64,000 nt of DNA from an uncultured Actinomycetes bacterium. Its GTDB lineage: Bacteria; Actinomycetota; UBA4738; JBBDTT01. A model generated the notes under the pieces. The model was not told the DNA's origin. It saw only the letters and a program-made list of their open reading frames with translations, and did not search any database. Where the stretch lies: positions 1,280,001 through 1,344,000 of the forward strand of contig CAVUMN010000004.1 in assembly GCA_963742735.1 (NCBI GenBank), in the 5' to 3' direction. The stretch's first letter is position 1, and each line of letters opens with the position of its first letter. Made by a program: the position numbers and the translations under genes. Positions 7,051 to 49,644 of this stretch are shown piece by piece.

Positions 7051-7128
7051 TTCCTGTTGGCCCTGGGGCCACCGGCCTCGGGGTTTTCTGTCGGAACCCC
7101 TGAGCCGGAATGGAGTTGGTCGCCGCAC

Positions 7129-7347
7129 GTGGCGAAGAAGGATGCGATCGAGGTCGAGGGCACGGTGGTCGAGCCCCTGCCCAACGCGATGTTCCGCGTT
7201 GAGCTGGAGAACGGTCACAAGGTCCTCACCCACATCTCGGGAAAGATGCGGATGAACTACATCCGGATCCTCCCCGGGGACCGGGTGCTCGTCGAGCTTT
7301 CGCCCTACGACCTCACGCGCGGACGGATCATCTACCGGTACCGATAG
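7129..7347 (+). CDS. infA: Translation initiation factor IF-1
   Basis: [45 protein letters not shown]. Confidence 0.98.
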
Positions 7348-7357
7348 GAGTCGAGCG

Positions 7358-7471
7358 ATGAAGGTACGACCGTCGGTCAAGCCGATGTGCGAGAAGTGCA
7401 AGATCGTCCGCCGTCGCGGACGGGTGGTCGTCATCTGCTCGAACCCCCGGCACAAGCAGCGACAGGGCTAG
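7358..7471 (+). CDS. rpmJ: 50S ribosomal protein L36 (not in ORF track)
   Basis: Manual translation [37 protein letters not shown]; AGGAG RBS. Confidence 0.97.
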
Positions 7472-7481
7472 GAGAGACCGA

Positions 7482-7859
7482 GTGGCACGAATCGCCGGCG
7501 TCGACCTTCCCCGCGAAAAGCGGGTGGACATCGCCCTGCGCTACATCTACGGGATCGGGCCCACCAAGTCTCGCCAGACCGTCGAGGGCGCCAAGATCAC
7601 CGACGGGACCAAGGTCCGCGACCTCTCCGAGGAGGAGATCGTCCGGATCCGCGAGTGGATCGACCGCAACTACAAGGTCGAGGGCGACCTCCGCCGCGAC
7701 GTGGCCCAGGACATCAAGCGCAAGATCGAGATCGGCTCCTACCAGGGGATCCGGCACCGCCGGAGTCTCCCGGTCCGCGGACAGCGCACGCACACGAACG
7801 CGCGCACGCGCAAGGGCCCCAAGAAGACCGTCGGCGTGAAGCGGAAGAAGGGCAAGTAG
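7482..7859 (+). CDS. rpsM: 30S ribosomal protein S13
   Basis: [37 protein letters not shown]. Confidence 0.98.
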
Positions 7860-7862
7860 CTC

Positions 7863-8255
7863 ATGGCGAAGCCGAAGGCGAAGAAGGCCCGGAAGAAGGA
7901 GAAGAAGAACATCTCCCACGGCCAGGCTCACATCAAGTCCACGTTCAACAACACGATCGTCACGATCACCGATCAGTCGGGGAACACCCTGTCGTGGGCG
8001 AGCGCCGGCAACGTCGGCTTCAAGGGTTCCCGCAAGTCCACCCCCTTCGCCGCACAGCTCGCCGCCGAGGCCGCCGCGCGCCGGGCCCAGGAGCACGGCG
8101 TGGTCAAGGTCGACGTCTTCGTGAAGGGCCCGGGCTCGGGCCGCGAGACCGCGATCCGCTCCCTGGCCGCCGCCGGCCTCGAGGTGGTGGGCATCCAGGA
8201 CGTCACCCCGGTGCCGCACAACGGCTGCCGTCCCCGCAAGCGGAGGCGTGTCTAG
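7863..8255 (+). CDS. rpsK: 30S ribosomal protein S11
   Basis: [38 protein letters not shown]. Confidence 0.98.
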
Positions 8256-31311: not shown

Positions 31312-32697
31312 GTGACCACCGACGTTCGCGTGGCCGTCATCGGCCTCGACTGCGGGACACCTCAGCTGCTGTTCGACTCTCTCAAGGACGAGGTTCCCAA
31401 CATCAACAAGCTCATCGAGCGCTCCATGTGGGGCGAGCTGCAGTCGATCACGCCCCCGATCACGGTCCCGGCCTGGGCGTGCGCCATGAGCGGCAAGACC
31501 CCGGGCCAGCTGGGGATCTACGGGTTCCGCAACCGCAAGGACTCGACCTACGACGGCCTGTCGATCGCCACGAGCGACGCCGTCAAGGAGTCCCAGGTGT
31601 GGGACCTCCTCGGCGCCCAGGGGAAGAAGTCCCTGCTCATCGGGGTGCCGCCCGGCTACCCGCCGAAGCCCGTGGAGGGCTGGCGAGTCTCGTGCTTCCT
31701 GACCCCGCCCTCGGCCAAGTCCTACACGTGGCCCCCCGAGCTCGCGGCGGAGGTCGAGGAGGAAGTGGGCGAGTACATCTTCGATATCCCCAACTTCCGC
31801 GAGCAGGGGTTCGAGCACGTCCACCAGCAGGTCTACGCGATGACGGAGCGGCGCTTCAAGCTCGCCCGCCGGCTCATCAAGAACAAGCCGTGGGACTACT
31901 TCATGCTCGTCGAGATGGGACCGGACCGGCTCCACCACGTGTTCTGGCACTTCTGTGACCCGGCCCATCCGAAGTACGTCCCGGGGAACCCGTTCGAGTC
32001 CGCGTTCCGCGACTACTACCGCTACCTCGACAAGGAGGTCGGCTCGCTGCTCGAGCTGATCCCGCAGGACGCGGTGACGATCCTCATGTCCGATCACGGC
32101 GCCCGGCCGATGGTGGGCGGGGTGTGCTTCAACGACTGGCTCCAGCGCGAGGGCTACCTGGCGCTTTCGAGCTCGCTCGACGGGCCGACCCCCATCGCCA
32201 AGGCCCCGATCGACTGGTCGAAGACCATGGCCTGGGGCGACGGCGGCTACTACGGCCGCCTGTTCCTCAACGTGAAGGGCCGCGAGCCGCAGGGCGTCAT
32301 CGAGCCGGCCGACTACGAGCGCGTCCGCGACGAGATGATCGCGAAGCTGGAGGCGATGCCGGACCACCAGGGCCGGCCGATGGGAACGATCGTCTACAAG
32401 CCGGAGGACGTCTACGCCGAGGTCAATGGCGTCGCCCCCGACCTGATCGTCTACTTCGGCGACCTCGAGTGGCGATCGGTCGGGACGATCGGCACCGGCG
32501 ACGTGTATACGTTCGAGAACGACACCGGCCCCGACGGCGCGAACCACGCGCAGTCCGGGGTGTTCGCGATGGCCGGCGCGCCGGGGCAGCCGAGCGGCCG
32601 GCAGGAGGGTTTGCGTCTGGTGGACGTGGGCCCCACGATCATGAAGCTCTACGGGCTCGACGTGCCCGGAGACGCAACCGGAAGGAGCATGCTGTGA
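31312..32697 (+). CDS. Alkaline-phosphatase-superfamily protein (type I phosphodiesterase/nucleotide pyrophosphatase)
   Basis: [43 protein letters not shown]. Confidence 0.87.
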
Positions 32698-33275
32698 CGG
32701 AGACGCAGGCGGCCACGAGGGAGCGGCCGATGAGGAACGGAGACGACCCGCGCGGGTTCTGTCTGTGGCTCACCGGGCTCTCGGGGGCGGGCAAGTCCAC
32801 CCTCGCGGAGCTGCTGGTGGGCGAGCTCGCGCACCGCGAGGTGAGGACCGAGCTGCTGGACGGCGACATCGTCCGCACCAACCTCTCCAAGGGCCTCGGG
32901 TTCTCCAAGGAGGACCGCGACACGAACATCCTGAGGATCGGCTTCGTCGCCCACCTGCTGCAGCGCAACGGGGTGGGCGTGGTCGTCTCCGCGATCTCGC
33001 CCTACAAGGACGTGCGCAACCAGTGCCGCGCGATGATGGGCGAGGACTTCATCGAGATCTACGTGAACGCGCCCCTGGACGTCTGCGAGTCACGCGACGT
33101 GAAGGGCCTCTACGCGAAGGCGCGGGCCGGTGAGCTCAAGGGCTTCACCGGGATCGACGACCCGTACGAGCCCCCGGACCACCCGGAGCTGGAGCTCCGG
33201 ACGGACGCCTTGTCGCCCACGGAGTGCCTGGCCAAGGTGCTGGGGCTCCTCGAGGAGAGGGGATACCTGCGATGA
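32694..33275 (+). CDS. cysC: Adenylyl-sulfate (APS) kinase
   Basis: [46 protein letters not shown]. Confidence 0.95.
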
Positions 33276-35279: not shown

Positions 35280-36818
35280 GTGACCGACGAGCCGAGGCCC
35301 GTCCTGGTCGTCGACTTCGGCGCGCAGTACGCGCAGCTGATCGCGCGCCGCGTCCGCGAGTGCAACGTCTACTCCGAGATCGTCCCGCACGACATCCCCG
35401 TGGCGGAGCTCCGCCGCCGCCGCCCGGCCGGTCTGATCCTGTCGGGGGGCCCGATGAGCGTGTACGAGGAGGGCGCCCCGCAGCTCAACCCGGAGTTCCT
35501 AGAGACCGGCGTCCCCGTCCTGGGCATCTGTTACGGCCAGCAGGCCATGACCCGGGCGCTGGGAGGCGAGGTGGCCCACAGCGGGATCCGGGAGTACGGC
35601 AAGACCGAACTGACCGTGACGACGCCGGGCGTCCTGCTCCGAGACCTCCCCACCGAGCAGATCGTCTGGATGAGCCACGGCGACGCCGTGACCCGGCCTC
35701 CCGAAGGGTTCCGCCCCACCGCCAGCACCGACGCCTCGCCGGTGGCGGCCATGGAGGACCCCGAGCGCGGACTGTTCGGCGTGCAGTTCCACCCCGAGGT
35801 GGCGCACACCCCGCGCGGGCTCGACGTCATGAAGCGGTTCCTGCACGACGCCTGCGGGCTCCTGCCGGACTGGACGCCGATCACCGTGGTCGAGCGCGCC
35901 GTCGAGCAGGTCCGGGCGCAGGTGGGGGACCAGGAGGTCCTGTGCGCGCTCTCGGGCGGCGTGGACTCGGCGGTGGCGGCACTGCTGGTCCACCGAGCGG
36001 TGGGGGAGCGCCTGACGTGCGTGTTCGTCGACACCGGCCTGCTGCGTCTGGGCGAGCCCGAGCAGGTCGAGGAGACCTTCCGCGGCCACTTCGGCATCGA
36101 CCTGGTGCACGTGAAGGCCGAGGACCGGTTCCTGGGACGACTCGCGGGCGTGACCGACCCGGAGGACAAGCGCAAGGCGATCGGCGAGGAGTTCATCCGG
36201 GTCTTCGAGGAGGTGGCCCGCGATCACACCGGCGCCCGCTTCCTGGTCCAGGGAACCCTGTATCCCGACGTCATCGAGTCCGGGACCCGCGACGCCGCGA
36301 AGATCAAGAGCCACCACAACGTGGGCGGGCTCCCTGAGGACATGGACTTCGACCTGGTCGAGCCCCTGCGCGACCTGTTCAAGGACGAGGTCCGAAAGGT
36401 GGGACAGGAGCTCGGTCTGCCCGAGGAGATCGTGTGGCGCCAGCCGTTCCCCGGTCCGGGCCTGGCGGTGCGCATCATCGGCGAGGTCACCAAGGAGCGC
36501 CTGGAGATCCTCCGCGGGGCCGACGCGGTGGTCCAGGAGGAGATCCGCCGCGCCGGCCTGACCCGGGAGCTGTGGCAGGCGTTCGCGGTGCTCCCGGCGA
36601 TCCGCAGCGTCGGGGTCATGGGCGACGGCCGCACGTACGCCTACCCCATCGCGGTACGCGCGGTCACGAGCGAGGACGCGATGACCGCCGACTGGGCCCG
36701 GCTGCCCTACGAGGTCCTGGAGCGCATCTCCAGCCGGCTGGTGGCCGAGGTGGCCGGGGTCAACCGGGTGGTCTACGACATCTCGTCGAAGCCGCCGTCC
36801 ACCATCGAGTGGGAATGA
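35280..36818 (+). CDS. guaA: GMP synthase (glutamine-hydrolyzing)
   Basis: [52 protein letters not shown]. Confidence 0.98.
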
Positions 36819-37090
36819 CCGCCTCGCCGCTGCGGATCCCCGACGACGTGGTGTTCGAGGTGCTCGGGGAGGACACGGTGCTCCTGCAGCTCGAGAGCGG
36901 CGACTACTTCACGCTGAACGGCTCCGCCACGCGGGCGTGGCAGCTCATCGAGGAGCACGGCGACCTGGATCGCGTCCGCCAGGCGATGCTCGCCGAGTAC
37001 GAGGTGCCCCACGACCAGCTGAACGCCGACCTCGACCGGCTTGTGGGAGACCTCGTTGAGCGCGGCCTCCTCGACCGGTCCTCCGGCTGA
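36815..37090 (+). CDS. PqqD-family RiPP recognition element (lasso B1/E protein)
   Basis: 91 aa; [44 protein letters not shown] is the PqqD/RRE pattern; ATG overlaps guaA TGA. Confidence 0.92.
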
Positions 37091-37556
37091 GCCCCGGCCC
37101 CGGCGCGGCGCGGCCGGGGCGCTGGGCGCCTTCCTCCGACGGACCCCCGGCGAGCGGGCCGCGGTCGTGCGCGCCCTCCCGGCGCTCGCCCGGGTGGAGC
37201 TCGGCCTCCGCGGGCACGCCCCGCTGCCCGAGCTCGCCGCGCGGCTGGGGATCCGACTGGGCACGGATCCCACCGAGCGCCCGCGGCGGGGCGCCCCGCT
37301 CTCGGAGCGCGAGCGGCTGGACGTCGACGCGGCGCGGCGGATGGTGCGGCGGGTCCCCGCCGAGGCCCGGTGCCTCCGCCGCGCGCTCCTGGTCGGCCAC
37401 GCCCTGCGGGCGCGCGACCCGGTGCTCCGGATCGGGGCGGCCAAGCACGACGGCCACATCCACGCCCACGCGTGGATCGAGGTCGGCGGCCAGGTCCCCG
37501 AGGACACCGAGCACGGCGTGACGTTCCTGCCACTCCGACGGGCCCGGGGCTCGTGA
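37056..37556 (+). CDS. Lasso peptide leader peptidase (B2, transglutaminase-like)
   Basis: RCLRRAL (catalytic Cys), LRIGA, HAHAWIE (catalytic His); start TTG 37056 or 37041. Confidence 0.92.
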   Translation: MSAASSTGPPAEPRPRRGAAGALGAFLRRTPGERAAVVRALPALARVELGLRGHAPLPELAARLGIRLGTDPTERPRRGAPLSERERLDVDAARRMVRRVPAEARCLRRALLVGHALRARDPVLRIGAAKHDGHIHAHAWIEVGGQVPEDTEHGVTFLPLRRARGS

Positions 37557-38476
37557 GCGAGGTCTACCTGGTCCACGGGTTCCGGATGGAATCCGACGTG
37601 GAGCTGCCCGCGCCGCGGACGGACGGTCGGGTGGACCTGTCGGTCACGGTGGAGGATCCCCGTCCGGTCGCGGACGCGCCGCCGCCCGGGAGGGTGCTCG
37701 CGTCCGTCGAGGAGGACGGGTTCACCTACACGGTGACCGACGACGGGGGCACCCTGCGGGTGCGGGTGCCTCGCTTCGCCGAATTCGAGGTGGACCCGGA
37801 GCGGCGGCGGGCGCGGATGCATCGCGACCCGTCGGCCGACGCGGGGATCGAGTCGATCCTCATCTGTGGATCCCTCCCGGCGGCCCTGCTCGCCGAGGCG
37901 GGGGCCTGCGTCCTTCACGGGAGCGCGGTCCAAGCCGGCGGCCGCGCGGTCGCCTTCGTCGGTGGTTCCGGCGGGGGCAAGTCCACGCTCGCGGCGGTGC
38001 TGTGCGCCGCGGGCGCCAGGCTGATCACGGACGACCTGCTTCGACTGATCGTGGACGGCGACGAGGTCCGCGCGGCCGCCGGGCCCCCCGAGATCCGGCT
38101 GCGGCCGGCGGCGGCTCAGCTGGCGGCGGGCCTGGCGGGTGAGGCGTCGCAGACCGCGGACGGCCGTACGGCGGTCCGCGTGGAGGAGGGCGCCGAGTCG
38201 CCGCTCGCGACGATCATCATCCCGTCGCCCGATCGTGAGATCGCGGAGGTGCACGCCGAGCGTCTGAGCGGGGCGGAGGCGCTGGTGGAGCTTGGGCGCT
38301 ACCCGCGGGCGGCGGGGTGGCGACCCCCGGAGGTTCGGGCCGCGCGGTTCAGGGCGCTGGCCCAGGTCTCGCGGGCCGTCCCCGTGTTCCGGGCGCGGAT
38401 CCCCTGGGGCCCCCCGTTCGCCGAGGACCTGGCGGAGGCGCTGCTCGGGCTGGCCGGACTCGGGGTGCCACGTTGA
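37553..38476 (+). CDS. HPr-kinase-like lasso peptide kinase
   Basis: LHGSAV, GGSGGGKST P-loop, ITDDLL; located inside the lasso cluster. Confidence 0.85.
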   Translation: MSEVYLVHGFRMESDVELPAPRTDGRVDLSVTVEDPRPVADAPPPGRVLASVEEDGFTYTVTDDGGTLRVRVPRFAEFEVDPERRRARMHRDPSADAGIESILICGSLPAALLAEAGACVLHGSAVQAGGRAVAFVGGSGGGKSTLAAVLCAAGARLITDDLLRLIVDGDEVRAAAGPPEIRLRPAAAQLAAGLAGEASQTADGRTAVRVEEGAESPLATIIIPSPDREIAEVHAERLSGAEALVELGRYPRAAGWRPPEVRAARFRALAQVSRAVPVFRARIPWGPPFAEDLAEALLGLAGLGVPR

Positions 38477-40230
38477 GCCTGCGGCCCCTCAGCGACCTGC
38501 TCGCGGTCCGCTCGCCCGATCCCGGCCGGCTGGAGGCGCTCGAGGGCGAGCTCCGGTCGAGCGGCCGGTTCGCGCAGGTGTGGCGCCCGGCACCCGGCTG
38601 GGTGGTGGCCGCCGCGCCGCTGCCGGACTCGGACGCGGACGGTGAGGCGGTCCGGGGGGCCGGGCTGGCTTTCGTCGAGGGGCGCGAGGTCGTGGGTGCC
38701 GACGATCCCGGCCGGGCGATCGAGATCGCCCACCGCGCGGCGCACGCGCCGGCGACACTCGACGGCCTTCCCGGAGACTTCACGTTCCTGGCGTTCGGCA
38801 CCGATGGCTCGCTGACCGTGGTCCGGGCGGCGGCGGGTCTCGCCCCCCTCTACGTCACGGGGGAGGGGGCGGTGGCCAGCCGGATGGACCTCCTCCTCCG
38901 GTTCGGCCTCGCCGAGCCGGACCTGGACCCGCTGCCGAACGCGATGTGGCTCACGGGTTTCGCGCTGTTCCCCGACGGCCGAAGCCTGATCGCGGGGGTC
39001 CATGTGGTCGAGCGGGGGTCCTACTGGCGCATCGGCCCGGGCGGCGAGCGAAGCTCCGGCGTCTACTGGAATCCGCGCGCGCAGGAGCTGGCCCCGCCAA
39101 CGCCGGCCGTCCTCGAGGAACGGTCGGCGCGCCTCCGGGAGATCCTGGTCGAGCGCCTGACCGCCGACCTCGATCCACGGGAGGGGAACCTGCTGTCGCT
39201 CTCCGGCGGGATGGACTCCTCGTCGCTGCTGGCGCTGGCCGCCGGGACCCTCGGGCTGCCGGTGGCCGCCCTGTCGTTGCTGCCGGAACGGGGTCCCGCG
39301 GTGGACCGTGAGCTCGGCTACATCCGGGCGGCGTCCGAGCGCGGTCCGCTGGCCGAGCACTTCCAGTACCCCATGAGCGTCGAGTTCCGGCGCCGCCTTC
39401 GCCGGTCGGCCCCCGCGGTGGCGGTCCAGTGCCTGCACCCGATCCTGATGGTCCTGCCGGAGGTGCTCGAGCGGTGGCCGGTCCGGGTGCTGTTCGGTGG
39501 CGAGTCGGGGGACGACATCGCCGGCTCGCACTACACGATGGAGGACTGGGTCCACCACACCTCCCTCTCACGCCTGCTGGGCTCCGTCGGGCGGTTCCCG
39601 CACGGGCCCCAGGACGTGGCGCGTTGGCTGAAGTGGCGGTCGGAACGCCTCCGGGGGAGGCCGCGGCTCCCGTTCCCGGATCGCCTGGCGCCGTGGACGC
39701 ACCCGGACGTCCAGACGGAGTACCGGGCGTGGGTCGCCGACCGGCGCCGGGAGCTCCTGGACGACGAGCTGCCCCGGCCGAACTTCGCGATGCGGGACCG
39801 GATGGACGGTTGGCTGGCGATGAACTGGGAGGTGACCGCGACACTCGGCGTGCGGCGGTCGATCCCGTTCTACAACCGGGCGAGCGTCGAGCTGGCCTTC
39901 GGCACCCATCCCCGGACCCTGGTGGGACCGGGTATGAAGCGCCTGCTCAGGCGGGGGCTGGCCGCCGACGTCCCGCGGGTCGTCCTGGAGCGCCCGGACA
40001 AGGGGGGGTGGGGCTCCGCCGTCGAGCCCGAGCCGGCGTCCGTCCCGGAGGAACCGATGGACCTCTCCCTTGGGTCCATCCTGCATCCGAACCGCCTGGC
40101 GTCTCCCTCGCCGCCGGTCGATTCGGCCGAGGCGAGCCGCCTGTCGGTGCTCGTCCGATTCCTGGAGGGGGCGCGGGCGGCCCGTGCGGGTGATCCGACG
40201 GCTTCGCCGCGTGGCGGCGGATCTTCTTGA
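38473..40230 (+). CDS. Lasso peptide cyclase (asparagine-synthetase-like isopeptide synthetase)
   Basis: SLSGGMDSS PP-loop, GGESGD, RSIPFY, KRLLR..VP..ERPDK; no N-terminal catalytic Cys of a true AsnB. Confidence 0.9.
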   Translation: MSLRPLSDLLAVRSPDPGRLEALEGELRSSGRFAQVWRPAPGWVVAAAPLPDSDADGEAVRGAGLAFVEGREVVGADDPGRAIEIAHRAAHAPATLDGLPGDFTFLAFGTDGSLTVVRAAAGLAPLYVTGEGAVASRMDLLLRFGLAEPDLDPLPNAMWLTGFALFPDGRSLIAGVHVVERGSYWRIGPGGERSSGVYWNPRAQELAPPTPAVLEERSARLREILVERLTADLDPREGNLLSLSGGMDSSSLLALAAGTLGLPVAALSLLPERGPAVDRELGYIRAASERGPLAEHFQYPMSVEFRRRLRRSAPAVAVQCLHPILMVLPEVLERWPVRVLFGGESGDDIAGSHYTMEDWVHHTSLSRLLGSVGRFPHGPQDVARWLKWRSERLRGRPRLPFPDRLAPWTHPDVQTEYRAWVADRRRELLDDELPRPNFAMRDRMDGWLAMNWEVTATLGVRRSIPFYNRASVELAFGTHPRTLVGPGMKRLLRRGLAADVPRVVLERPDKGGWGSAVEPEPASVPEEPMDLSLGSILHPNRLASPSPPVDSAEASRLSVLVRFLEGARAARAGDPTASPRGGGSS

Positions 40231-40255
40231 CACTGTTCAGCACAGCCCCTACTGT
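40227..40255 (+). promoter_or_regulatory. Near-consensus promoter dedicated to the lasso precursor gene
   Basis: TTGACA-N17-TACTGT; GAGGAG RBS at 40276-40281. Confidence 0.75.
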
Positions 40256-40289
40256 CCTCGGGACTTCCGGCCCACGAGGAGTTCGCCCC

Positions 40290-40427
40290 ATGGAAAGCCA
40301 GACCGAGCAGGAAGAGGCGCGCAAGCCGTACGAACCCCCGGCCGTGCGTGAGCTCGGCAAGGTCGCGGAGATCACCCACGGGATCAACGCCCTTCCGGGC
40401 AGCGACAACACGGTCGCCAGCGTCTAG
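40290..40427 (+). CDS. Lasso peptide precursor (45 aa; predicted core GINALPGSDNTVASV)
   Basis: Leader YEPPAVRELGKVAEIT-H fits YxxPxL/VxxxGxxxxxT(-2); core starts Gly1 with Asp at position 9. Confidence 0.92.
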   Translation: MESQTEQEEARKPYEPPAVRELGKVAEITHGINALPGSDNTVASV

Positions 40428-40433
40428 AGCTCC

Positions 40434-41495
40434 TCAGCCCGACGCGTCACGGCGCCACACGGCCCGTCCGATCCACGCTCGAAACGCCCTCCAGTCCATG
40501 CGGCCGTTCGCGTCCCTGAACCGGCGCGGATCGAGCCGGCCGATCGCGTAGACCAGGCCCTCACGGGGCCCCAGCTCCCGGATCCTGGCGATCTGCAGCC
40601 GCACGCCTCTGGCGTCGGTCTGGCGGGCTTCCGCGAGCCGCCCCCGTGGCGCCGGCGTGGGCCGGGCCCCCCACCTGGGCTCGCCCAGGGCACGCTCGGC
40701 GGCGGCCAGGGCGTCCTCCAGGGCCCATCCGACCCCGTGGCGCCCCGCGAGCTCCCGCGCGGTCTCGACGTCGCCTGGCAGGCCGAGCTCCACGAAGTCC
40801 ATCACCCACTGGTACCGGAACGTCTCGGGCGGGTGATGGGCCAGGTGGACGGCCAGGGCCATCAGCTGCGCGGGCGCCGAGAGCCTCAGCAGGCCGTCGT
40901 CCCCCGGGTCGGCGTGCGCCGCGAGCGCCGCGTGGTCCAGTCCCCGGGCGCGACGCTCGGCGAACAGCCGCCAGTGCATCTCGACGGCGATCGGCGCGCC
41001 GGGGCCCGGTCGCGTGAAGACCAGGTGGTGGTGATAGCGCAGGGCCGACCGCGTCTCCCACGCGGTCGGCCCCGTGTAGCCGATCCCTTCCAGCGCCGTT
41101 CTCCACGCGGGAAGGTCGTCCACGGGAACCAGGAGGTCGACGTCGACGAACGTCCGGATCGCGGGATCGGCGTAGCGGGAGGCCACCGCGGGCCCCTTCA
41201 GCAGGATGGCCGTCGCGGCCTCGGGCGGAGCGGCCCCCGCCACGCGCCGCGCCTCCAGCCCGAGCACCGTGGCCAGTGCCCGGGCGGAGCCCCAGTCGTC
41301 GCGGAGCCCGGCCAGGACGGGCTCCGGCAGGCGCAGCCCCTCGGCCCTCGAGACCACCAGCCCGGAGAGGCCGTGGCGCGCCGCGCGTCCCCGGAGTGCC
41401 TCCGACGCCCCGGCGCCGAGGGCCCCGGGGTTCCGGCCCCCCACCAGGGCCTCGAGGTACCGGTCCGCCTCGTCCTCGGCCTCGACGGTTCCCAT
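40434..41495 (-). CDS. Uncharacterised nucleotidyltransferase-family protein (NTP_transf_5-like), lasso-associated
   Basis: ILLKG..RY..R.FVDVDLLV..VEMHWRL..LAVHLAHH..WVMD. Confidence 0.85.
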   Translation of the reverse strand: MGTVEAEDEADRYLEALVGGRNPGALGAGASEALRGRAARHGLSGLVVSRAEGLRLPEPVLAGLRDDWGSARALATVLGLEARRVAGAAPPEAATAILLKGPAVASRYADPAIRTFVDVDLLVPVDDLPAWRTALEGIGYTGPTAWETRSALRYHHHLVFTRPGPGAPIAVEMHWRLFAERRARGLDHAALAAHADPGDDGLLRLSAPAQLMALAVHLAHHPPETFRYQWVMDFVELGLPGDVETARELAGRHGVGWALEDALAAAERALGEPRWGARPTPAPRGRLAEARQTDARGVRLQIARIRELGPREGLVYAIGRLDPRRFRDANGRMDWRAFRAWIGRAVWRRDASG

Positions 41496-41501
41496 CCGAT
41501 C

Positions 41502-42296
41502 TCAGTAGTCCGCGATCGCGCCGGTGCGCATCGCCCGGCGGATCGACCAGGCGAGTGCCCCCACGCCCATCCCGGCGAAGGCGACGGCCAGCCCGGCGAG
41601 CGCCGCGACGTCGCCGAGGGACGCGCCCCAGCCGTCGCCCCGGAGGAGGCCGGCCCGCACCAGCCGCAGCGAGTGGGTGAACGGCGAGAGCTCCGAGAGC
41701 GACTCCGCCCAGTTCGGGAGCAGGCTCGCAGGGAACAGGGAGCCGGCGGTGACGGTGAGCAGGCTGACCAGGAACGCGGCGGCGGCCTGCGCCTGCCGGA
41801 ACAGGATCACCAGCGCAGCGGCGACCAGCCCCAGTCCCGCGAACGCGATCGCTCCGGCGACGACCCCGTAGAGGGCGAGGCTCCAGTTGCCCCCGGGCGC
41901 TCGCGCGCCCAGCAGCGCCGCCACGCCGACGTAGAGCGCGGAGCGGCCGGCGGCGTACGCCATCGGGTACGCCGCCATCCCCGCGGCGACGGCTCGGGCC
42001 GGGAGGCCCACCGACAGCGTGGCCTCCAGGGTTCCCTGGACCTGCTCCTGCCGGAAGTTCGCGGACAGGATCGAGACGCCCGCCGCCAGGAAGGACGTGA
42101 GGGCGATGCCCGCCGCGGCGAAGGAGAAATAGCCTCCCGGAACCCGCCCCGGGTCAACCAGGCGCCCGACGAAGACGAACGTGATCAGCAGGAACGCGGC
42201 CGACAGCACCTCGCCGGCGATCAGCGGCAGGGGGTAGGACCACGCCACCCGGGCGTCGCGCCTGACGAAGGCGCCCACCGCGGACCGCGGGCTCAT
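41502..42296 (-). CDS. ABC-2 type exporter permease
   Basis: Six TM segments; RQEQVQGTLE, GSLFP..LP.W..LSPFTH. Confidence 0.88.
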   Translation of the reverse strand: MSPRSAVGAFVRRDARVAWSYPLPLIAGEVLSAAFLLITFVFVGRLVDPGRVPGGYFSFAAAGIALTSFLAAGVSILSANFRQEQVQGTLEATLSVGLPARAVAAGMAAYPMAYAAGRSALYVGVAALLGARAPGGNWSLALYGVVAGAIAFAGLGLVAAALVILFRQAQAAAAFLVSLLTVTAGSLFPASLLPNWAESLSELSPFTHSLRLVRAGLLRGDGWGASLGDVAALAGLAVAFAGMGVGALAWSIRRAMRTGAIADY

Positions 42297-42931
42297 GCCG
42301 GCTCCACGGCGGGCTGCAGCTCCAGCCGGACGTCCGGCTCGGGACCCTCCGCCTCGAGCGGCGCCGCGTACAGCACCACGCCTCCGCCGGACGTCCACGC
42401 CCGGCAGGCCGCCTCGACCGCCGCGCAGCCCGGCCGGTCGAGGTCCGCGTACGGCTCGTCGATCAGGACGACCGGGGGCCGGCCGACGAGGGCCCGGGCG
42501 ATGGCCACCCGTCGCCGCTGGCCCGTCGAGCAGACGCCCATGCGTCGTTCGAGCAGCGGTTCGGCGTCCAGGGCCTTGGCGGCCCAGGCCACGTCCGTGC
42601 CGCCCGCGCCCGAGATCCCGGCGAAGAACTCCAGGTTCGCCCGCCCCGTGAGCCGCCAGTACAGGCCTCGGTCGCCCGCCGGGACGAAGCCGCTCCGCCC
42701 CCGCCCGGGCGGGGCGCCGGCCACCTCGACCCGGCCCGCGTCGGGCAGCAGGACCCCCGCGAGCACCCGTAGCAGCGTGGTCTTGCCCGATCCGTTGGGG
42801 CCCACGAGGGCCGCCAGCGTGCCCGCCTCGAGCCTCACGGAGACGTCGTCCAGGACTCGCCGGGCGCCGAAGCTCCGGGTGACGCCCTCGGCCTCGAGGG
42901 AGCCGGGCGAGGCGGGGCCGGGCCGGTCCAT
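42293..42931 (-). CDS. ABC exporter ATP-binding protein (degenerate Q- and H-loops)
   Basis: GPNGSGKTT Walker A, CSTGQRRR signature, VLIDEP Walker B; LYWRLTGRANLEFF. Confidence 0.88.
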   Translation of the reverse strand: MDRPGPASPGSLEAEGVTRSFGARRVLDDVSVRLEAGTLAALVGPNGSGKTTLLRVLAGVLLPDAGRVEVAGAPPGRGRSGFVPAGDRGLYWRLTGRANLEFFAGISGAGGTDVAWAAKALDAEPLLERRMGVCSTGQRRRVAIARALVGRPPVVLIDEPYADLDRPGCAAVEAACRAWTSGGGVVLYAAPLEAEGPEPDVRLELQPAVEPA

Positions 42932-42938
42932 GCGCCGG

Positions 42939-42948
42939 ATTCTAGAAT
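42939..42948. promoter_or_regulatory. Palindromic bidirectional -10 element (TAGAAT on both strands)
   Basis: ATTCTAGAAT in the 27-nt gap between the divergent ABC ATPase and pcrA starts. Confidence 0.7.
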
Positions 42949-42958
42949 CGCCGTACCC

Positions 42959-45133
42959 GTGACTCCCGAATCCCCCCTCCTGTCGACCCTCAACCCGGTG
43001 CAGCGCGAGGCCGTGCTGCACGCGGACGGCCCCGTGCTGATCGTGGCCGGGGCGGGCAGCGGCAAGACCCGGATCCTCACCCACCGGATGGCCTACCTGA
43101 TCCGAGAGATGGGCGTGTCCCCGTACGCCATCCTGGCGATCACGTTCACCAACCGGGCCGCCAACGAGATGGCCGAGCGGGTCGAGGCCCTCCTGGGGGA
43201 GCGCGTCGCCAAGGGCATGTGGGTGCTGACGTTCCACTCGTCGTGTGTGCGGATCCTCCGCCGCGAGCACAAGCGCCTCGGTCTGCCGGCGTCCTTCTCG
43301 ATCTACGATGAATCCGACACGCAGCGGGTCGTCTCGATGTGCCTCAAGGAGGCGAACCTGGACGTCAAGAAGTTCCCGCCCCGGGGCGTCGCCGCGGTGA
43401 TCGGCAAAGCCAAGGACCACCTGATCAGCCCCGAGGAGTTCGCCGACCAGGCCTCCAACTGGTACGAGCGCTCGGTGGCCGACGTCTACCGCGCCTACCA
43501 GCGGCGGCTCCAGGCGGCCGGCGCGCTGGACTTCGACGACATCATCGTGCGCACCGTGAACCTGTTCCGCTCCCAGCCCGAGGTCCTGGAGCACTACCAG
43601 GAGCGGTTCACCCACATCCTGATCGACGAGTACCAGGACACGAACCGCGCGCAGTATCACCTGGTGAACCTGCTGGCCTCCAAGCACCGCAACCTGTGCG
43701 TGGTCGGCGACGCCGACCAGGGCGTGTACTCCTGGCGCGGGGCGACGATCCAGAACCTCCTCGAGTTCGAGAAGGACTACCCGGACGCGGCCGTGTTCGT
43801 CCTGGAGCAGAACTACCGCTCGACGCAGAACATCCTCTCGGTCGCGAACGCGCTCATCGAGCACAACCTGGAGCGCAAGCCGAAGTCGCTGTGGACCGAG
43901 GCTCCGGGTGGGGAGATGGTCGTGCGGGTTCGCGCCAACGACGAGCACGACGAGGCCTGGTTCGTGGCCGAGGAGATCACGCGACTGACCGACGAGGGGC
44001 CGTACCGGTACGGGGACGTGGCGGTGTTCTACCGGACCAACGCCCAGTCGCGGGTCCTGGAGGACGTCCTGTCGCGGGCGGGCCTGCCGTACCGGGTGGT
44101 CGGGGGCGTGCGCTTCTACGAGCGCCGGGAGGTCAAGGACCTCATCGCGTACCTCCGCCTGCTGGTGAACCCGGCGGACGTGGTCTCGGCCCGGCGCGTG
44201 GTGGGCGTGCCGAAACGGGGGATCGGCGAGGCGACCGTGGCGGCGCTGGAGGGCTTCGCCCGCGACGAGGAGATCACGTTCCTGGAGGCGGCCCGCCGCG
44301 TGGAGGAGATCGACGTCCTCGGGTCGAGGGCCAGAGGCGCCGTCGCCGGCTTCGTTCGCCTCATCGACAGCCTGCGGGCCATGGCCGAGGACGGGACCTC
44401 GGTCTCCGGCCTGGTCGAGGCGGCGTTCACCGAGTCTGGGTACATGGCCGAGCTCGAGGCGGAGCGGACCGTGGAGGCCGAGGGACGCGTGGAGAACCTG
44501 AAGGAGCTCGTCGGCGTCGCCGCGGAGTTCGAGGCCCGGTCCGAGGAGGCCGGGCTCGCCGACTTCCTGGAGCAGATCGCGCTGGTGACCGACCAGGACG
44601 AGTACGAGGACGCCGAGTCGACGGTGACGCTGATGACGCTGCATACCGCCAAGGGCCTGGAGTTCCCGGCGGTGTTCGTCGTGGGCATGGAGGACGGGGT
44701 GTTCCCGCACTACCGCTCGATGGGCGACCCGTCCCAGCTCGAGGAGGAGCGGCGGCTGGCGTACGTGGGCATCACCCGCGCCCGGGAGCGCCTGTACCTG
44801 ACGCACGCGTGGAGCCGGAACCTGTGGGGCGGCTCGTCGTTCAACCCGCCCTCGCGCTTCCTGGGCGAGATTCCCGAGGCGTTCGTGAAGCTCCACCAGG
44901 TCGAGGGGACCTCGGAGGGCGCCGGGGCGGGCAACGGCGCCGGCCGTTCGGGCATCCAGCAGCGCGCGGTGCCCACCCTGGTCGCCGGCGACACCGTCAT
45001 CCACGACCGCTGGGGGCCGGGGGTGGTGGTCGAGGTGTTCGGGGCGGGACAGCGCGCCGAGGCGAAGATCGCGTTCGAGGACCAGGGCGAGAAGCGGCTG
45101 CTCCTCGCCTATGCGCCCATCCGGAAGGCATAG
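42959..45133 (+). CDS. pcrA: ATP-dependent DNA helicase PcrA/UvrD
   Basis: AGAGSGKT, ITFTN.AA.EM, IDEYQDTN, VGDADQ..Y.WRGA, NYRST, HTAKGLEF, EEERRLAYVG.TRA. Confidence 0.97.
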   Translation: MTPESPLLSTLNPVQREAVLHADGPVLIVAGAGSGKTRILTHRMAYLIREMGVSPYAILAITFTNRAANEMAERVEALLGERVAKGMWVLTFHSSCVRILRREHKRLGLPASFSIYDESDTQRVVSMCLKEANLDVKKFPPRGVAAVIGKAKDHLISPEEFADQASNWYERSVADVYRAYQRRLQAAGALDFDDIIVRTVNLFRSQPEVLEHYQERFTHILIDEYQDTNRAQYHLVNLLASKHRNLCVVGDADQGVYSWRGATIQNLLEFEKDYPDAAVFVLEQNYRSTQNILSVANALIEHNLERKPKSLWTEAPGGEMVVRVRANDEHDEAWFVAEEITRLTDEGPYRYGDVAVFYRTNAQSRVLEDVLSRAGLPYRVVGGVRFYERREVKDLIAYLRLLVNPADVVSARRVVGVPKRGIGEATVAALEGFARDEEITFLEAARRVEEIDVLGSRARGAVAGFVRLIDSLRAMAEDGTSVSGLVEAAFTESGYMAELEAERTVEAEGRVENLKELVGVAAEFEARSEEAGLADFLEQIALVTDQDEYEDAESTVTLMTLHTAKGLEFPAVFVVGMEDGVFPHYRSMGDPSQLEEERRLAYVGITRARERLYLTHAWSRNLWGGSSFNPPSRFLGEIPEAFVKLHQVEGTSEGAGAGNGAGRSGIQQRAVPTLVAGDTVIHDRWGPGVVVEVFGAGQRAEAKIAFEDQGEKRLLLAYAPIRKA

Positions 45134-45140
45134 TGGCGCC

Positions 45141-47108
45141 GTGAGCGTCAACGCCCGCCCACGCGCCCGTACCGGTGGCGCGCTGGACCGCGACCGGCGA
45201 CGGGCCCGGCGCACCGTGCACCCCGGAGCCTTCCGGCGGCGCCGGTGGCCGTGGGTCGTCGGCGGCGGGCTCGCCCTCCTGTTCGGCCTGGTCACGTTCC
45301 AGGCGTACCGGATCGCGCTGTACACGGCGGAGGACCTCCGTTCGGCGGCCCTGGTCCTGAAGGTGGGCCCGGGCTTCCTGGTGGGCGGCACCCCCTTCTC
45401 CGACGACGCGTTCACCCGCGTGGAGACCTCGATCGACAAGGCCATCGAACGCGTGGAGAACGCGAACTGGTCGTTCGACGTGGTCGGGGCGGTGCCGCTG
45501 CTGGGGCGTCCCGTTCACGCCGCCGAGCACCTGGTCCGGGCGGCGGCCATCGAGCTCGACTCGATCAAGCTCGCCCGGAGGACGCTCGCCGACATCACGG
45601 GCGAGGACGGGTCGAGCCCGCTGCTGCGCAACGGCCAGGTGGACCTGGACACCCTCCGCGCCGCCGCGGCCACCCTGGAGAAGATCATGTCCGACCTCGC
45701 GCTGGTGGAGGCCGAGGTCCGGGCCGTGAAGCCGATCCCGTTCGTGGCCGAGACGGCGCGGCTCAAGGCCGAGGCTCTCGCGGAGCTCGCCCGGGTCCGG
45801 GAGAGCGCCGAAGTGATCCGCCGGGCGCTCGCCATCATCCCGAACTTCCTCGGCGACGAGGAGCCGCGGATCTACCTGCTCGCGGTCCTCAACAACGCCG
45901 AGCTGCACGGGGTGGGTGGGGCGTTCCTGTCCTTCGGCGTGGTGAAGGCGCGGTTCGGGCGCCTGGGCCTGGTGGGGGATCCGGGCGACCCCCTCATGCT
46001 CGATCCACGGACCGATCCGGAGCCGGTCCCGGCGCCCGCGGACAACTACTACCTGAACGAGATCTACCCCGTGCACCTGGTGAACGCGCTCAACGGGCCC
46101 GACTTCGCGCAGGGGGCCCGGCTGGCCTCGGATATCGCGGAGGCCAAGTTCGGCCGTCCGCTCGACGGGGTGATCGCCGTGGATGCGGTCGGTCTGTCCT
46201 ACATCCTGCCCGCGGTCGGCCCGATCAAGTTCCCCAAGCCCAAGGTCGTGCTCACGCCGCAGAACTTCGTGAAGTTCTCGACCAACGCGCAGTACCTGCT
46301 GTATCCCTACGACGTCCGCCAGCGGATCCAGAAGGCAACGATCGAGCACGTGTGGGGCCGGATCGGCAGCGCGGCGAATCCCCTCGCGCTGCTCCGGGGC
46401 CTGTCCCGGGGCCTCGAGGAGCGCCGGGTGCTGCTCTGGTCCCGCTTCCCGGAGGAGCAGCGCCTGTTCCGGTCCAAGGACTGGGCGGGGGCGCTGTTCA
46501 AGCCCCACGGCGACTACTTCCTGCTGAACCACCAGAACCTGGGGGTCGACAAGCTCGACTACTACCTGCGGGAGCACGTGCGCTACAGGGTCCGCATCGA
46601 GGAAGACGGCGACCTGGACGTCGAGGCCCAGATCGTGATGCGCAACACCGCGCCGCCGGACCTGCCCAGGCCGGTCGGCAACAACGACGGCTCGAAGATG
46701 CGAACGCTGCTGGGGGCATTCGTCCACGGCCGGGCGGAGTTCGAGGGCCTCGCCGTCCAGGACGACAGCGCCACGGTGCCCGACGGGCCTCGAGCCGAAC
46801 GGGCGACCGTCGGCTACGGCAAGAACCTGTACCTGACGATCGTCAAGATCGACGGGAAGTCGAAGGCGGTGGTCAAGATCCGGTACCGGGTCCCGAACGC
46901 GGTCGTGAACACCGACGCCGGCCGGTTCTACCGCCTGCTGATACAGCACCAGCCGCTGGTGCATCCGGCGACGGTGCGCGTCGAGCTGATCCCGGGTGAG
47001 GGGGTCTCCTTCGGGCAGCTCTCGGCGTTGTGGACGCTCGTCGAGGGCAAGGCCGTGTACGAGGGACCGCTGGAACGGGACCTGGTCCTGGACGTGCCCC
47101 TGCGCTGA
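45141..47108 (+). CDS. DUF4012-domain membrane-anchored protein (paralog 1)
   Basis: N-terminal TM; FLG...R.YLL...NNAEL.G.GG, PDF, DGVIAVD, KLDYY, IQHQP; start uncertain. Confidence 0.8.
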   Translation: MSVNARPRARTGGALDRDRRRARRTVHPGAFRRRRWPWVVGGGLALLFGLVTFQAYRIALYTAEDLRSAALVLKVGPGFLVGGTPFSDDAFTRVETSIDKAIERVENANWSFDVVGAVPLLGRPVHAAEHLVRAAAIELDSIKLARRTLADITGEDGSSPLLRNGQVDLDTLRAAAATLEKIMSDLALVEAEVRAVKPIPFVAETARLKAEALAELARVRESAEVIRRALAIIPNFLGDEEPRIYLLAVLNNAELHGVGGAFLSFGVVKARFGRLGLVGDPGDPLMLDPRTDPEPVPAPADNYYLNEIYPVHLVNALNGPDFAQGARLASDIAEAKFGRPLDGVIAVDAVGLSYILPAVGPIKFPKPKVVLTPQNFVKFSTNAQYLLYPYDVRQRIQKATIEHVWGRIGSAANPLALLRGLSRGLEERRVLLWSRFPEEQRLFRSKDWAGALFKPHGDYFLLNHQNLGVDKLDYYLREHVRYRVRIEEDGDLDVEAQIVMRNTAPPDLPRPVGNNDGSKMRTLLGAFVHGRAEFEGLAVQDDSATVPDGPRAERATVGYGKNLYLTIVKIDGKSKAVVKIRYRVPNAVVNTDAGRFYRLLIQHQPLVHPATVRVELIPGEGVSFGQLSALWTLVEGKAVYEGPLERDLVLDVPLR

Positions 47109-47169
47109 GCGTGAGCCCGGGAACAGGGCGAAACCTCCAAAGCCACAACCGTTCGATAGACTCGCCCGA

Positions 47170-49644
47170 ATGTCGCGCGACTTCCTCCCCGCGCCGGTCG
47201 AGTTCCCGGGGGGTCGCCGCCGCCGAACCAAGCGGCGCCGTCACCGAAGCCACGGAAGCCAGGGCTCCTCCTCCCAGGGCCGTCGTTCCGCGCGCCCCGG
47301 CGGGAGCGGGCCCGCGCGTGCCGACGGGAGCGTGCTCACCGACGAGCTCGACGGCCTCGCCCCCCTCGAGCCCCAGTCGCCCTATCGCCGCCGGCGCAGC
47401 CGGCGCAGCAAGCGAGGCCTCGGCCACCGCTACCGCAAGTGGCGCAGCCGGCGCGAGCGCCGGAAGTACAAGTCGTTCATGGGGGGCCACGCCGAGAGCT
47501 CCCGCGACGTCGCCCGTCGCTACGAGCGGTCGCGATCCCGCCGCAAGCGCCTGGTCATCGGCGGCGTGGCGGCGGTCGTCCTGGGGGCGTTCGGGGTCGC
47601 GGCCGGCGACGCCTACCTCCAGGCCTCGAGCGTCCTGGACAAGGTCCGCGACTCCGGGGAGAGCCTCAAGCAGGTCCGGTCGAACCTGATCCGGGGCAAG
47701 CTCCCGCCGGAGGAGGCGTTCGCGGCCGCCGCCAAGGCGATCGGTGAGGCCCAGGAACAGGTCAACGGGGTGCGGGCCACGTGGCCGGTGGTGCGCGCCG
47801 TGCCGTTCATCGGGCTGCCCGTGTCGGCCACGGAGCGCCTGCTCGAGGCGAGCCGGCACGAGCTGAGCGCCGCCATCGCGGCCAAGGAGCTGCTCGAGGA
47901 CATCCTGGGCCAGACGATCGAGGAGGCCCGGGCCGAGGCCGAGGAGGCGGCGGCCCGGCGCGAGGAGGCCGACGCCGACGGCAGCGGGACCCTGACGCCC
48001 GAGGAGCGCCGCGAGCTGAAGGCGGCCGGCCAGGGCCCGAAGGGCGGCGGCGGGAAGGAGGCGCCCGCCCAGGACGACCCGAACGCGCTGCTGTCCAACG
48101 GCAAGGTGAACCTGGCCCGGATGCGCGAGCTGATCCCCAAGGTCCAGACGCTGGAGACCGAGCTCGCCGCGGCCGAGGCGGCCGTCGAAGCGATCGGGCC
48201 CGTCCCGTTCGTGTCCAAGGTCGAGGAGCTCCGCCAGGACCTGATCGGGGAGATCCAGGAGTCACGTCGCCTGGCCCAGCGAGCCCTCACGGGGCTGAAC
48301 TTCATCCCCGCGTTCCTCGGGTCCGGCGAGCAGAAGAACTACCTGCTGCTGTTCTCGGACAGCGGCTTCCTGCGGGGCACGGGCGGGGCGTACTTCGCGT
48401 ACGCGGAGATCTCCGTGAAGTCCGGGAAGCTCTCACTGGTGAACCAGGGCCCGATCATCGACCTCGACAAGTACGTCAACGAGCCGGTCGACCACGTCGT
48501 CCCGAAGGAGAACTGGTACCTGGAGACCTTCGGGCTCTCCAAGCGGATGAACAACCTCAACTGGGACCCGCACTTCCCGAACACCGCCCCGGTCGCGGCC
48601 GAGATCTACAAGCTCCGCACGGCGGGCAAGGACATCAACGGCGTCGTGAAGCCCGAGGGCCGCCAGGTCGACGGCGTGTTCCAGATCGACATCACCGGCG
48701 TCTCGTATCTGGTCGACGCCATCGGCCCGATCGCGGTGGACTCGTGGCCGGACCCGATCGGCGGCGGCAACCTCGAGCGCGTCGCGCTCATCGACTCCTA
48801 CGTGGAGCTCTCCTCGGGCGCCGCGGCGGACGACGCGTCGGACTCCGGGGCCGCGCGCAAGGCGTTCAACGAGGACCTGGTCGACGCCACGTGGAAGAGC
48901 CTCCAGGAACCCGACGACCTGGTCCGCACCGTGTTCCAGCTCTCCCGCGCCCTGGCCGAGCGCCACATGCAGGTGTGGGTCCGGGCCCCGAAGCAGCAGG
49001 CCTTCTTCGAGGACCTGGGGATGGCCGGGGCGATCAAGGACGAGCCCGGCGACTACGTGTACGCGGTCGACCAGAACCTGGGCGACGACACCCTCGACGT
49101 CTTCACCTCGGAGCGGGTCGACTACGACGTGGTCGTGGACGAGGACGGCAACCTCGACGTGACGACGACCGTGAAGGCCACGAACTTCGTGGACGAGACG
49201 ATGCCGTACCCGATCCTCGACAACAGCGGCCCGCCGGACAAGAAGACCTACGTGAACCTCTACGTCCCGGCCAACGCCGAGCTGAAGTCGGTGAAGTACG
49301 TGAACCGGTTCAAGGAGAGCACGCCGCAGCAGATCGAGCCGCACCTCGAGGCCGGGCGGAAGGTGTTCAGCGCCCAGATGTCGATCAAGCCCCAGGAGAC
49401 CGCCTCCCTGGTGTTCAAGTACCGGGTTCCGGGCGGGCTCCTCGACGAGGATGGGCGGCTGTACCGCCTGCTCGTACAGCGCCAGCCCCGCTACGTGGAC
49501 CAGTCCCTGCGGGTGACGGTGCACTTCCCCGAGGACTGGGGCGCCGAGGGCTACGACGACGAGGTCTGGACGGTCGACGGGAACACGGCCACGGCGTTCG
49601 TCGAGGCCCTCGAGGAGGACGCGGTCTTCGAGCTGCGGTTCTGA
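47170..49644 (+). CDS. DUF4012-domain membrane-anchored protein (paralog 2) with Arg-rich N-terminus
   Basis: FLG....NYLLLF....LRGTGG, NWDPHFP, VDGVFQID, VQRQP; TAGACT lies 7 nt before the ATG. Confidence 0.8.
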   Translation: MSRDFLPAPVEFPGGRRRRTKRRRHRSHGSQGSSSQGRRSARPGGSGPARADGSVLTDELDGLAPLEPQSPYRRRRSRRSKRGLGHRYRKWRSRRERRKYKSFMGGHAESSRDVARRYERSRSRRKRLVIGGVAAVVLGAFGVAAGDAYLQASSVLDKVRDSGESLKQVRSNLIRGKLPPEEAFAAAAKAIGEAQEQVNGVRATWPVVRAVPFIGLPVSATERLLEASRHELSAAIAAKELLEDILGQTIEEARAEAEEAAARREEADADGSGTLTPEERRELKAAGQGPKGGGGKEAPAQDDPNALLSNGKVNLARMRELIPKVQTLETELAAAEAAVEAIGPVPFVSKVEELRQDLIGEIQESRRLAQRALTGLNFIPAFLGSGEQKNYLLLFSDSGFLRGTGGAYFAYAEISVKSGKLSLVNQGPIIDLDKYVNEPVDHVVPKENWYLETFGLSKRMNNLNWDPHFPNTAPVAAEIYKLRTAGKDINGVVKPEGRQVDGVFQIDITGVSYLVDAIGPIAVDSWPDPIGGGNLERVALIDSYVELSSGAAADDASDSGAARKAFNEDLVDATWKSLQEPDDLVRTVFQLSRALAERHMQVWVRAPKQQAFFEDLGMAGAIKDEPGDYVYAVDQNLGDDTLDVFTSERVDYDVVVDEDGNLDVTTTVKATNFVDETMPYPILDNSGPPDKKTYVNLYVPANAELKSVKYVNRFKESTPQQIEPHLEAGRKVFSAQMSIKPQETASLVFKYRVPGGLLDEDGRLYRLLVQRQPRYVDQSLRVTVHFPEDWGAEGYDDEVWTVDGNTATAFVEALEEDAVFELRF

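Follow-up and report, generated by a model that had tools for sequence, protein, structure and literature searches.

Organization of the cluster

The window, a stretch of 64,000 nucleotides from an uncultured Actinomycetes bacterium, carries a compact cluster flanked by guaA (35280-36818) and the gene of a UvrD/PcrA-type helicase (42959-45133). The source genome is a 3.08-Mb assembly in 5 contigs with a completeness of 89%, and the nearest named relatives of its cluster-encoded kinase are found in Acidimicrobiales MAGs. The cluster contains the following features:

36815-37090, + strand: B1, PqqD-like leader-binding protein (RRE); PF05402 PqqD, 59.7 bits (cut-off 23.4)
37041-37556, + strand: B2, transglutaminase-like leader peptidase; PF13471, 52.3 bits (cut-off 26)
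37553-38476, + strand: K, putative HPr-kinase-like peptide kinase with a GTG start; motif and matches to HPr kinase structures
38473-40230, + strand: C, Asn-synthetase-like lasso cyclase; PF00733, 33.7 bits (cut-off 21), SGGMDS motif
40203-40221, + strand: terminator-like hairpin at the 3' end of C (hairpin scan)
40227-40232 (TTGACA) and 40250-40255 (TACTGT), 17 nt apart, + strand: candidate promoter, read by eye
40290-40427, + strand: A, precursor gene; 45 aa, MESQTEQEEARKPYEPPAVRELGKVAEITHGINALPGSDNTVASV, followed by a TAG stop
40290-40379, + strand: leader of A, 30 codons, YEPPAV...G...T-H (translation and NF033521 match)
40380-40427, + strand: core of A, 15 codons and TAG; Asp9 codon at 40404-40406, Ser14 codon at 40419-40421
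40434-41495, - strand: N, PF14907 nucleotidyltransferase, 106.9 bits (cut-off 31.2), convergent with A
41502-42296, - strand: ABC-2 permease; PF01061, 49.7 bits; its ATG at 42296 overlaps the stop of the ATPase gene
42293-42931, - strand: ABC ATPase, 212 aa; PF00005, 85.4 bits

B1 (PF05402), B2 (PF13471) and C (PF00733) all scored above the Pfam gathering thresholds, which completes the lasso gene set. Against models built for lasso clusters, B2 reached 59.7 bits with NF033537 lasso_biosyn_B2 (cut-off 33). B1 matched the lasso PqqD chaperone models at E 2.8e-11, under the NCBIfam cut-off, and C matched the NCBIfam lasso cyclase model, yet also under its cut-off.

The genes upstream of A are tightly packed. 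Overlaps of four bases between start and stop codons join guaA to B1 (ATGA), B2 to K (GTGA) and K to C (TTGA), while the B2 reading frame, the start of which is uncertain, overlaps the 3' end of B1 by about 50 nt. B1, B2, K and C are predicted to be translationally coupled. The cluster itself opens with the ATGA at 36815-36818, in which the start of B1 overlaps the stop of guaA, a housekeeping gene; translation of B1 thus seems to be coupled to that of GMP synthase. The order B1-B2-K-C is kept in the closest metagenome relative, L018.

Between C and A, the TTGACA/TACTGT pair could be a separate promoter of the precursor gene, although it is a weak candidate (the -10 element agrees at 3/6 positions); a sigma-70 scan of 36600-43200 called no promoter. 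The ABC ATPase, the ABC-2 permease and N form a trio on the - strand that reads towards A, and 6 nt lie between the stop codons of A and N. At the other end of this trio, the ABC ATPase gene on the - strand and the helicase reading frame on the + strand have their starts only 27 nt apart (42932-42958). This gap leaves scant room for two divergent promoters, and one of the two starts may therefore be misplaced.

Several genes outside the cluster were also annotated. At 31312-33275 lies a gene for a type I phosphodiesterase/nucleotide pyrophosphatase (PF01663, 164.5 bits). The reading frame 3' of it contains an adenylylsulfate-kinase-like P-loop region, the source of a false match in the genome scan (L014); this candidate was rejected as a kinase relative, being an adenylylsulfate-kinase-like P-loop protein. 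Two large tandem DUF4012 proteins (87.8 and 75 bits) are encoded at 45111-49644, followed on the - strand at 49657-51819 by a fusion of an acyltransferase-3 and an SGNH domain.

The precursor and its predicted core

A starts 59 nt downstream of the lasso cyclase gene and is preceded by a Shine-Dalgarno sequence (GAGGAG, 40276-40281) that ends 8 nt 5' of the ATG. Its leader follows the pattern YxxPxLx3Gx5Tx with Tyr14, Pro17, Val19 in place of Leu, Gly23 and Thr29, the latter at position -2. The NCBIfam model NF033521 lasso_leader_L3 matched the precursor with 24.6 bits (curated cut-off 19), aligning residues 14-31 with profile positions 1-18. This match together with the location in a complete lasso cluster argues against a chance reading frame and, judged by its sequence, 40290-40427 is a genuine lasso precursor gene.

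The predicted core of 15 residues begins with Gly1 and contains Asp9 as its sole Asp/Glu, thereby combining a small residue at core position 1 with an acidic residue in the range of positions 7-9, as in lasso peptides. F, W, Y, R, K, H, M and C are all absent. The tail consists of Asn, Thr, Val, Ala, Ser and Val, and thus offers neither a bulky plug nor, with 0 Cys, a disulfide. These features bear out the original prediction, which had placed Thr at -2 with a cleavage that would release a core of 15 residues, had derived a Gly1-Asp9 ring from the only acidic residue, leaving a six-residue tail, and had described this tail as free of plug residues and Cys. Its monoisotopic mass of about 1395.70 Da for the cyclised core (+79.97 if phosphorylated) was reproduced by recalculation, which gave 1395.6994 Da, and 1475.6657 Da with HPO3.

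When 5.8 billion clustered proteins were searched for shared words, the A precursor matched only itself. When the same-genus genome G001 was searched with the A peptide, all matches were at chance level (E 0.14 or worse); in this genome, the cluster is on a contig of 3.2 kb that breaks off within the cyclase. Relatives of the leader were found at two metagenome loci. The precursor of L019 has a leader identical to that of A at 22/30 positions (hand count) and a very different core, and the same count applies to the leader of L018, the gene of which is cut at the contig end. A variable core behind a conserved leader is the usual pattern of RiPPs, and this conservation supports the assigned boundary between leader and core.

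Kinase and nucleotidyltransferase

The original prediction had also counted on a kinase and a nucleotidyltransferase in the vicinity, and genes for both are indeed situated beside A. K contains an intact His-Lys-Asp-Asp motif (H121, K142, D159-D160). All of the 10 relatives compared have His121, Lys142 and Asp160, and either Asp or Glu at position 159. This motif has been described as essential in lasso kinases (PMC9266682). In a profile comparison of K with solved structures, HPr kinase/phosphatases were the best matches (1ko7, E 7.6e-7). The score against the Pfam family Hpr_kinase_C was 21.3 bits, under the gathering score of 33.3, and the NCBIfam score was likewise under its cut-off. N shares conserved KGP and DVD motifs with three relatives, the latter representing a DxD metal-binding Asp motif. 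Within the class to which the window belongs, a kinase match at E <=1e-20 was present in 2/294 genomes, namely the source genome and its congener.

Kinase-linked precursors fall into two core types

As the A peptide has no word-sharing relative among the 5.8 billion proteins, the kinase was used as the query for related loci. A search of genome contigs yielded 3 real relatives, and a kinase match was obtained in 12/41 related genomes. For the metagenome scan, an alignment of 10 kinase sequences proved too diverse; a 5-sequence alignment was used instead and recovered 80 loci. A loose precursor motif matched in 45/90 loci, with some obviously false matches in spurious frames. A stricter version gave 53 matches with 47 distinct cores, and a spurious 11-aa match in L090 was removed ahead of the counts. 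Since the motif requires Y/F, Pro, Gly and Thr(-2), odd precursors are missed, and many contigs are cut.

The lengths of the cores form two groups that do not overlap, one long (19-31 aa) and one short (13-17 aa). Among the 25 distinct long cores, 21 end in Ser. The short group comprises 21 distinct cores from 13 loci including the window, each with only one Asp/Glu, located at position 8 or 9, and not one with a C-terminal Ser/Thr (0/21); nine of the 21 come from one locus, L064, and many of the loci are related. Bulky residues (F/W/Y/R/K/H) make up 3.1% of the residues in short cores versus 21.4% in long ones. The closest relatives of the window are L018 and L019, with 69-70% identity in the kinase and 72-73% in the cyclase. 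L019 encodes a core of 17 aa with an Asp8 ring and Ser13-Ser14, together with a convergent nucleotidyltransferase as in the window. By its predicted core, A is a member of a subgroup that is seen repeatedly and whose very small, plug-poor cores have no C-terminal acceptor.

The distribution of the two core types matches the kinase tree. On a tree of 60 rows (12 short, 20 long, 28 unlabelled; quick IQ-TREE search, leaving out HSPs shorter than 240 aa and also L075, in which the match contains a stop), the short/long label required 2 changes, compared with a mean of about 10 in shuffled labels, and 0/500 shuffles were as low. The window kinase groups with L018, L019 and G001 at 98% SH-aLRT. The remaining enzymes show a corresponding division: with the window cyclase as tblastn query, matches were found in 11/17 short-core loci versus 0/26 long-core loci. 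A nucleotidyltransferase was detected in 14/17 short-core versus 5/26 long-core loci using an HMM of four PF14907 proteins, a contrast that may be inflated because all four came from short-core loci and the HMM may under-detect in long-core loci. The three short-core loci without a match are L064 and, with contigs ending just past the precursor, L088 and L093. Of the four long cores that lack a terminal Ser, 3 sit among the five long-core loci with a nucleotidyltransferase. By tblastn, the window nucleotidyltransferase had matched only 3 loci besides the window; this search is insensitive, as Pfam and the HMM find many more, and the idea that the enzyme is peculiar to the lineage of the window was dropped.

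Some of these loci carry several precursors. On the 7.9-kb metagenome contig L064, nine different short precursors with cores of 15-17 aa are encoded in two groups (38-2732 and 7061-7884) that flank kinase, ABC exporter and cyclase; a nucleotidyltransferase was not found on this contig. The long-core precursors at L023:1516-1644, L023:2068-2208 and L034:658-780 all end in Phe-Asn-Phe-Ser; two of them lie in one locus and one has a His-rich ring region.

Position of the conserved Ser/Thr

Counted from the ring acid, a Ser/Thr is found at +5 in 16/21 short cores (Ser in 14), which corresponds to Ser14 in the window; the remaining 5/21 have none there. Shuffling of the tails gave a mean of 6.9 at this offset, and 16 was reached in 1/20000 shuffles, or in 3/20000 when the best of offsets 1-7 was taken. 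Counted per locus, the value was 8/12 versus 3.55 expected, reached in 150/20000 shuffles. Other offsets from the ring acid had 4-7 Ser/Thr among the 21 cores, and positions counted from the C-terminus at most 10/21. It has to be considered that the +5 regularity is post hoc, as the loci that revealed it also served to test it.

Two observations bear on what the Ser/Thr is measured from. Core position 13 is Ser/Thr in 14/21 short cores, near the 16/21 at +5, so that a ruler starting at the leader end is hard to set aside. In contrast, the residue shifts with the size of the ring: among the nine-residue rings (n=6), four cores have the Ser/Thr at position 14 and two at position 13, and among the eight-residue rings (n=15) it is at position 13 in 12. 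Although the numbers are small, this shift indicates that the place of the Ser/Thr follows the ring acid and not the N-terminus.

The regularity was less evident in an independent sample. We searched 401 genomes of the phylum (including G000), of which 20 had a kinase match with E <=1e-15, and examined 15 of these regions, leaving out two unpublished genomes. They contributed three new short cores, with Ser at +5 in 1/3 and a nucleotidyltransferase in 1/3 loci. The core of L121, from the genome with the best kinase match (G345), has 16 aa with Asp7, ends in Ser-Ala-Val with Ser at +7, and has a tail without a bulky residue. L122 (G512) has a core of 18 aa with Ser at +5, and L134 (G508) one of 14 aa with a C-terminal Thr at +6 and an Arg adjoining the last residue. 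Thus, the short, plug-poor design recurs in the independent sample, whereas the +5 spacing is weakened.

Other arrangements were noted in further kinase-linked loci. Two Actinomycetota genomes encode kinase-linked 42-aa cores that have a Cys-containing, Pro/Gly-rich stretch in common (L126:8956-9135, L132:8721-8900), and in both the reading frame of a nucleotidyltransferase overlaps the 3' end of the kinase frame. At L129:1500-2049, three tandem precursors with near-identical cores of 26-27 aa, none Ser-terminated, adjoin a kinase homologue; a nucleotidyltransferase was not found within 9.3 kb.

For the window, the comparison of short cores makes Ser14 quite probably the acceptor of the kinase. 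Of the three hydroxyls in this core, only the one of Ser14 is conserved in the subgroup. The original prediction had named Ser14 or Thr11, of which the first is strengthened by the count at +5 and the second loses ground, Thr11 corresponding to +2, where Ser/Thr occurs in 7/21 short cores. We consider it improbable that the kinase acts on Thr11 or on the ring residue Ser8, with Ser14 conserved for another reason. Both residues are present in the window core, and a precedent exists in BsfK of Bradymonas sediminis, reported to be regioselective for the non-terminal ring residue Ser3 with acceleration by B1 (Duan et al., 2023; PMC10368454), so lasso kinases evidently differ in the Ser they modify. 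However, the residue preceding the ring acid is Ser/Thr in 8/21 short cores, and the ring of the L019 core has no Ser/Thr at all. BsfA, as described there, further combines Ile at -2 and the acceptor Ser3 with a 21-aa core ending in Asp, and the corresponding signature, Ile/Val at -2 with Ser/Thr at core position 3, is absent from the window precursor, which has Thr at -2 and Asn3.

Proposed biosynthesis and nature of the product

Taken together, we favour the reading that A is the precursor of a tailored lasso peptide of class II type, to which we assign a probability of roughly 0.55; the modified Ser14 as a lock is its least certain step. By analogy with paeninodin, pseudomycoidin and BsfA, K, aided by B1, would phosphorylate the linear precursor while it still bears the leader. 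N would then extend the phosphate, the added group being a hexose in the case of pseudomycoidin. B1/B2 would cut after His(-1), C would join Gly1 to Asp9 and the ABC pump would export the product. The modified Ser14, installed before ring closure, would be the only bulky group of the tail and would keep a four-residue loop threaded through the nine-residue ring.

A plug that is already in place at ring closure would be topologically unproblematic, since the lasso fold is adopted earlier and lasso kinases take linear precursors as substrates. A single phosphate may not be bulky enough to keep the tail from slipping through a nine-residue ring. The loop of four residues is short, though lasso peptides of 15 residues do exist (PMC7314030). 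That the modified Ser14 is the lock is speculative, and we regard it as doubtful. Rather unlikely, too, is its generalization: a natural class of mini lassos of 13-17 residues, among the smallest known, with a lock enzymatically installed on a Ser about 5 residues past the ring, this lock being a phosphate with or without a nucleotidyltransferase-dependent adduct that is in place before the cyclase closes the ring. If so, removal of the adduct would unthread the peptide, making it a chemically switchable lasso, and the class would embody the third mode of lasso stabilization put forward by Zyubko et al. (2019).

The main alternative, which is possible and retains real weight, assumes the same biosynthesis with a branched cycle or a transiently threaded pseudo-rotaxane as the product. 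The adduct would then serve solubility, export, target or receptor recognition, signalling or self-protection, and the fixed distance to the ring would stem from substrate measurement by the kinase and not from mechanics. The window tail, without a residue able to hold a nine-residue ring, is in agreement with this, as are the failure of the +5 spacing in the independent sample and the ruler from the leader end discussed above. Pseudomycoidin points the same way: the purified, unmodified peptide is described as behaving as a branched cycle, and no antibacterial activity was seen there for either pseudomycoidin or paeninodin (PMC6993621). Stability, signalling and immunity are given as open roles in a rumen survey (PMC7533575). 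Against a branched cycle stands, besides the shift of the Ser/Thr with the ring acid in nine-residue rings, the combination of depleted bulky residues and a near-constant partnership of kinase and nucleotidyltransferase, which is expected if the modification replaces the plug. The intact lasso-type cyclase and B1/B2 would matter less for a simple branched cycle, though they are compatible with it.

A silent or decaying cluster, in which the short core is the truncated remnant of a longer Ser-terminated one, is highly improbable: most kinase-linked cores are indeed longer and Ser-terminated, and a word search of sequencing runs matched one soil-metagenome DNA run with a small word share and listed no RNA run, but none of the eight genes is interrupted, their motifs are intact and their starts coupled, a further 20 distinct short cores at 12 loci outside the window share the design, and read-through of the TAG (by eye) enters the convergent N without a Ser-terminated extension.

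Our preferred reading, a tailored lasso peptide, has consequences whichever way the lock is decided. A post-translational group as steric lock has been a standing suggestion since 2019, blurred in pseudomycoidin by the long tail. The window peptide, with a nine-residue ring and a six-residue tail of small residues alone, is a cleaner natural test, and the subgroup (21 distinct metagenome cores and 3 genome cores) shows a recurring design and supplies many test substrates. If the lock is true, very small lasso scaffolds become available, with threading switchable by a phosphatase. If it is false, lasso machinery produces kinase-tailored branched cycles, and the reading of such clusters in genome mining changes. 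Genome mining at present presupposes plug residues as well as a Ser at the C-terminus.

Comparison with known systems

The closest known counterpart is the psm cluster of Bacillus pseudomycoides, described as containing C, A, an HprK-like K, B1, B2, the nucleotidyltransferase N and an ABC exporter (PMC6993621). According to this report, PsmK adds one to three phosphates to the C-terminal Ser, PsmN is required for the attachment of one or two hexose units to this phosphate, the full-length precursor was found phosphorylated, and an L21F variant was threaded. Zyubko et al. (2019) suggested that bulky C-terminal groups may lock the lasso as 'an additional, third strategy' (PMC6993621); the installed plug put forward in the original prediction is therefore a hypothesis already in print. 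The window resembles pseudomycoidin, as described, in its gene set, in the nine-residue ring on an acidic position 9 and in a tail unable to hold the thread unaided. It differs in the length of the core, which has 15 aa, whereas that of pseudomycoidin is far longer (about 2616 Da, numbered to at least 23), and in the end of the core, which is Ser-Val instead of the C-terminal acceptor Ser. Furthermore, pseudomycoidin stems from Bacillota, unlike the Acidimicrobiales relatives of the window, and the psm N is located between B2 and D, whereas the window N is placed with the exporter in what would be a common transcript, convergent on A.

PadeK, ThcoK, SyanK and PsmK have all been reported to phosphorylate linear precursors (PMC9266682, PMC8498205, PMC6993621). 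With the paeninodin, ThcoK and SyanK systems, the window shares an HPr-kinase-like His-Lys-Asp-Asp enzyme that would likewise act ahead of B2 and C. The C-terminal Ser is described as extremely conserved among kinase-linked precursors and defines these systems (PMC9266682, PMC8498205). It is absent from the window core, and the Ser-Val end breaks the published C-terminal-Ser rule; moreover, the pade cluster is presented in these papers without a nucleotidyltransferase.

In the rumen survey, in-silico precursors of Butyrivibrio from clusters with kinase and nucleotidyltransferase have a conserved Ser near, not at, the C-terminus (PMC7533575). The cores reported there have 21-42 aa (29-31 in Butyrivibrio) and tails with aromatic and charged residues, in contrast to the 15 aa and small residues of the window.

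In length, the window core equals sungsanpin and chaxapeptin. Both of these have a ring of eight residues, compared with nine in the window, and a very short loop. They are described as having 15 residues, with hindered residues in the tail (PMC7314030). These class II peptides are held by aromatic residues near the C-terminus and are not known to have a kinase.

Our literature search, which left Zhu 2016, Tietz 2017 and supplements outside, found no report on lasso peptides with PF14907 or on this short-core subgroup. The gene set and the idea of the lock are already published; no description was found in this search of the division into long Ser-terminated and short internal-Ser cores, of the position of the Ser relative to the ring or of the link between the short type and PF14907.
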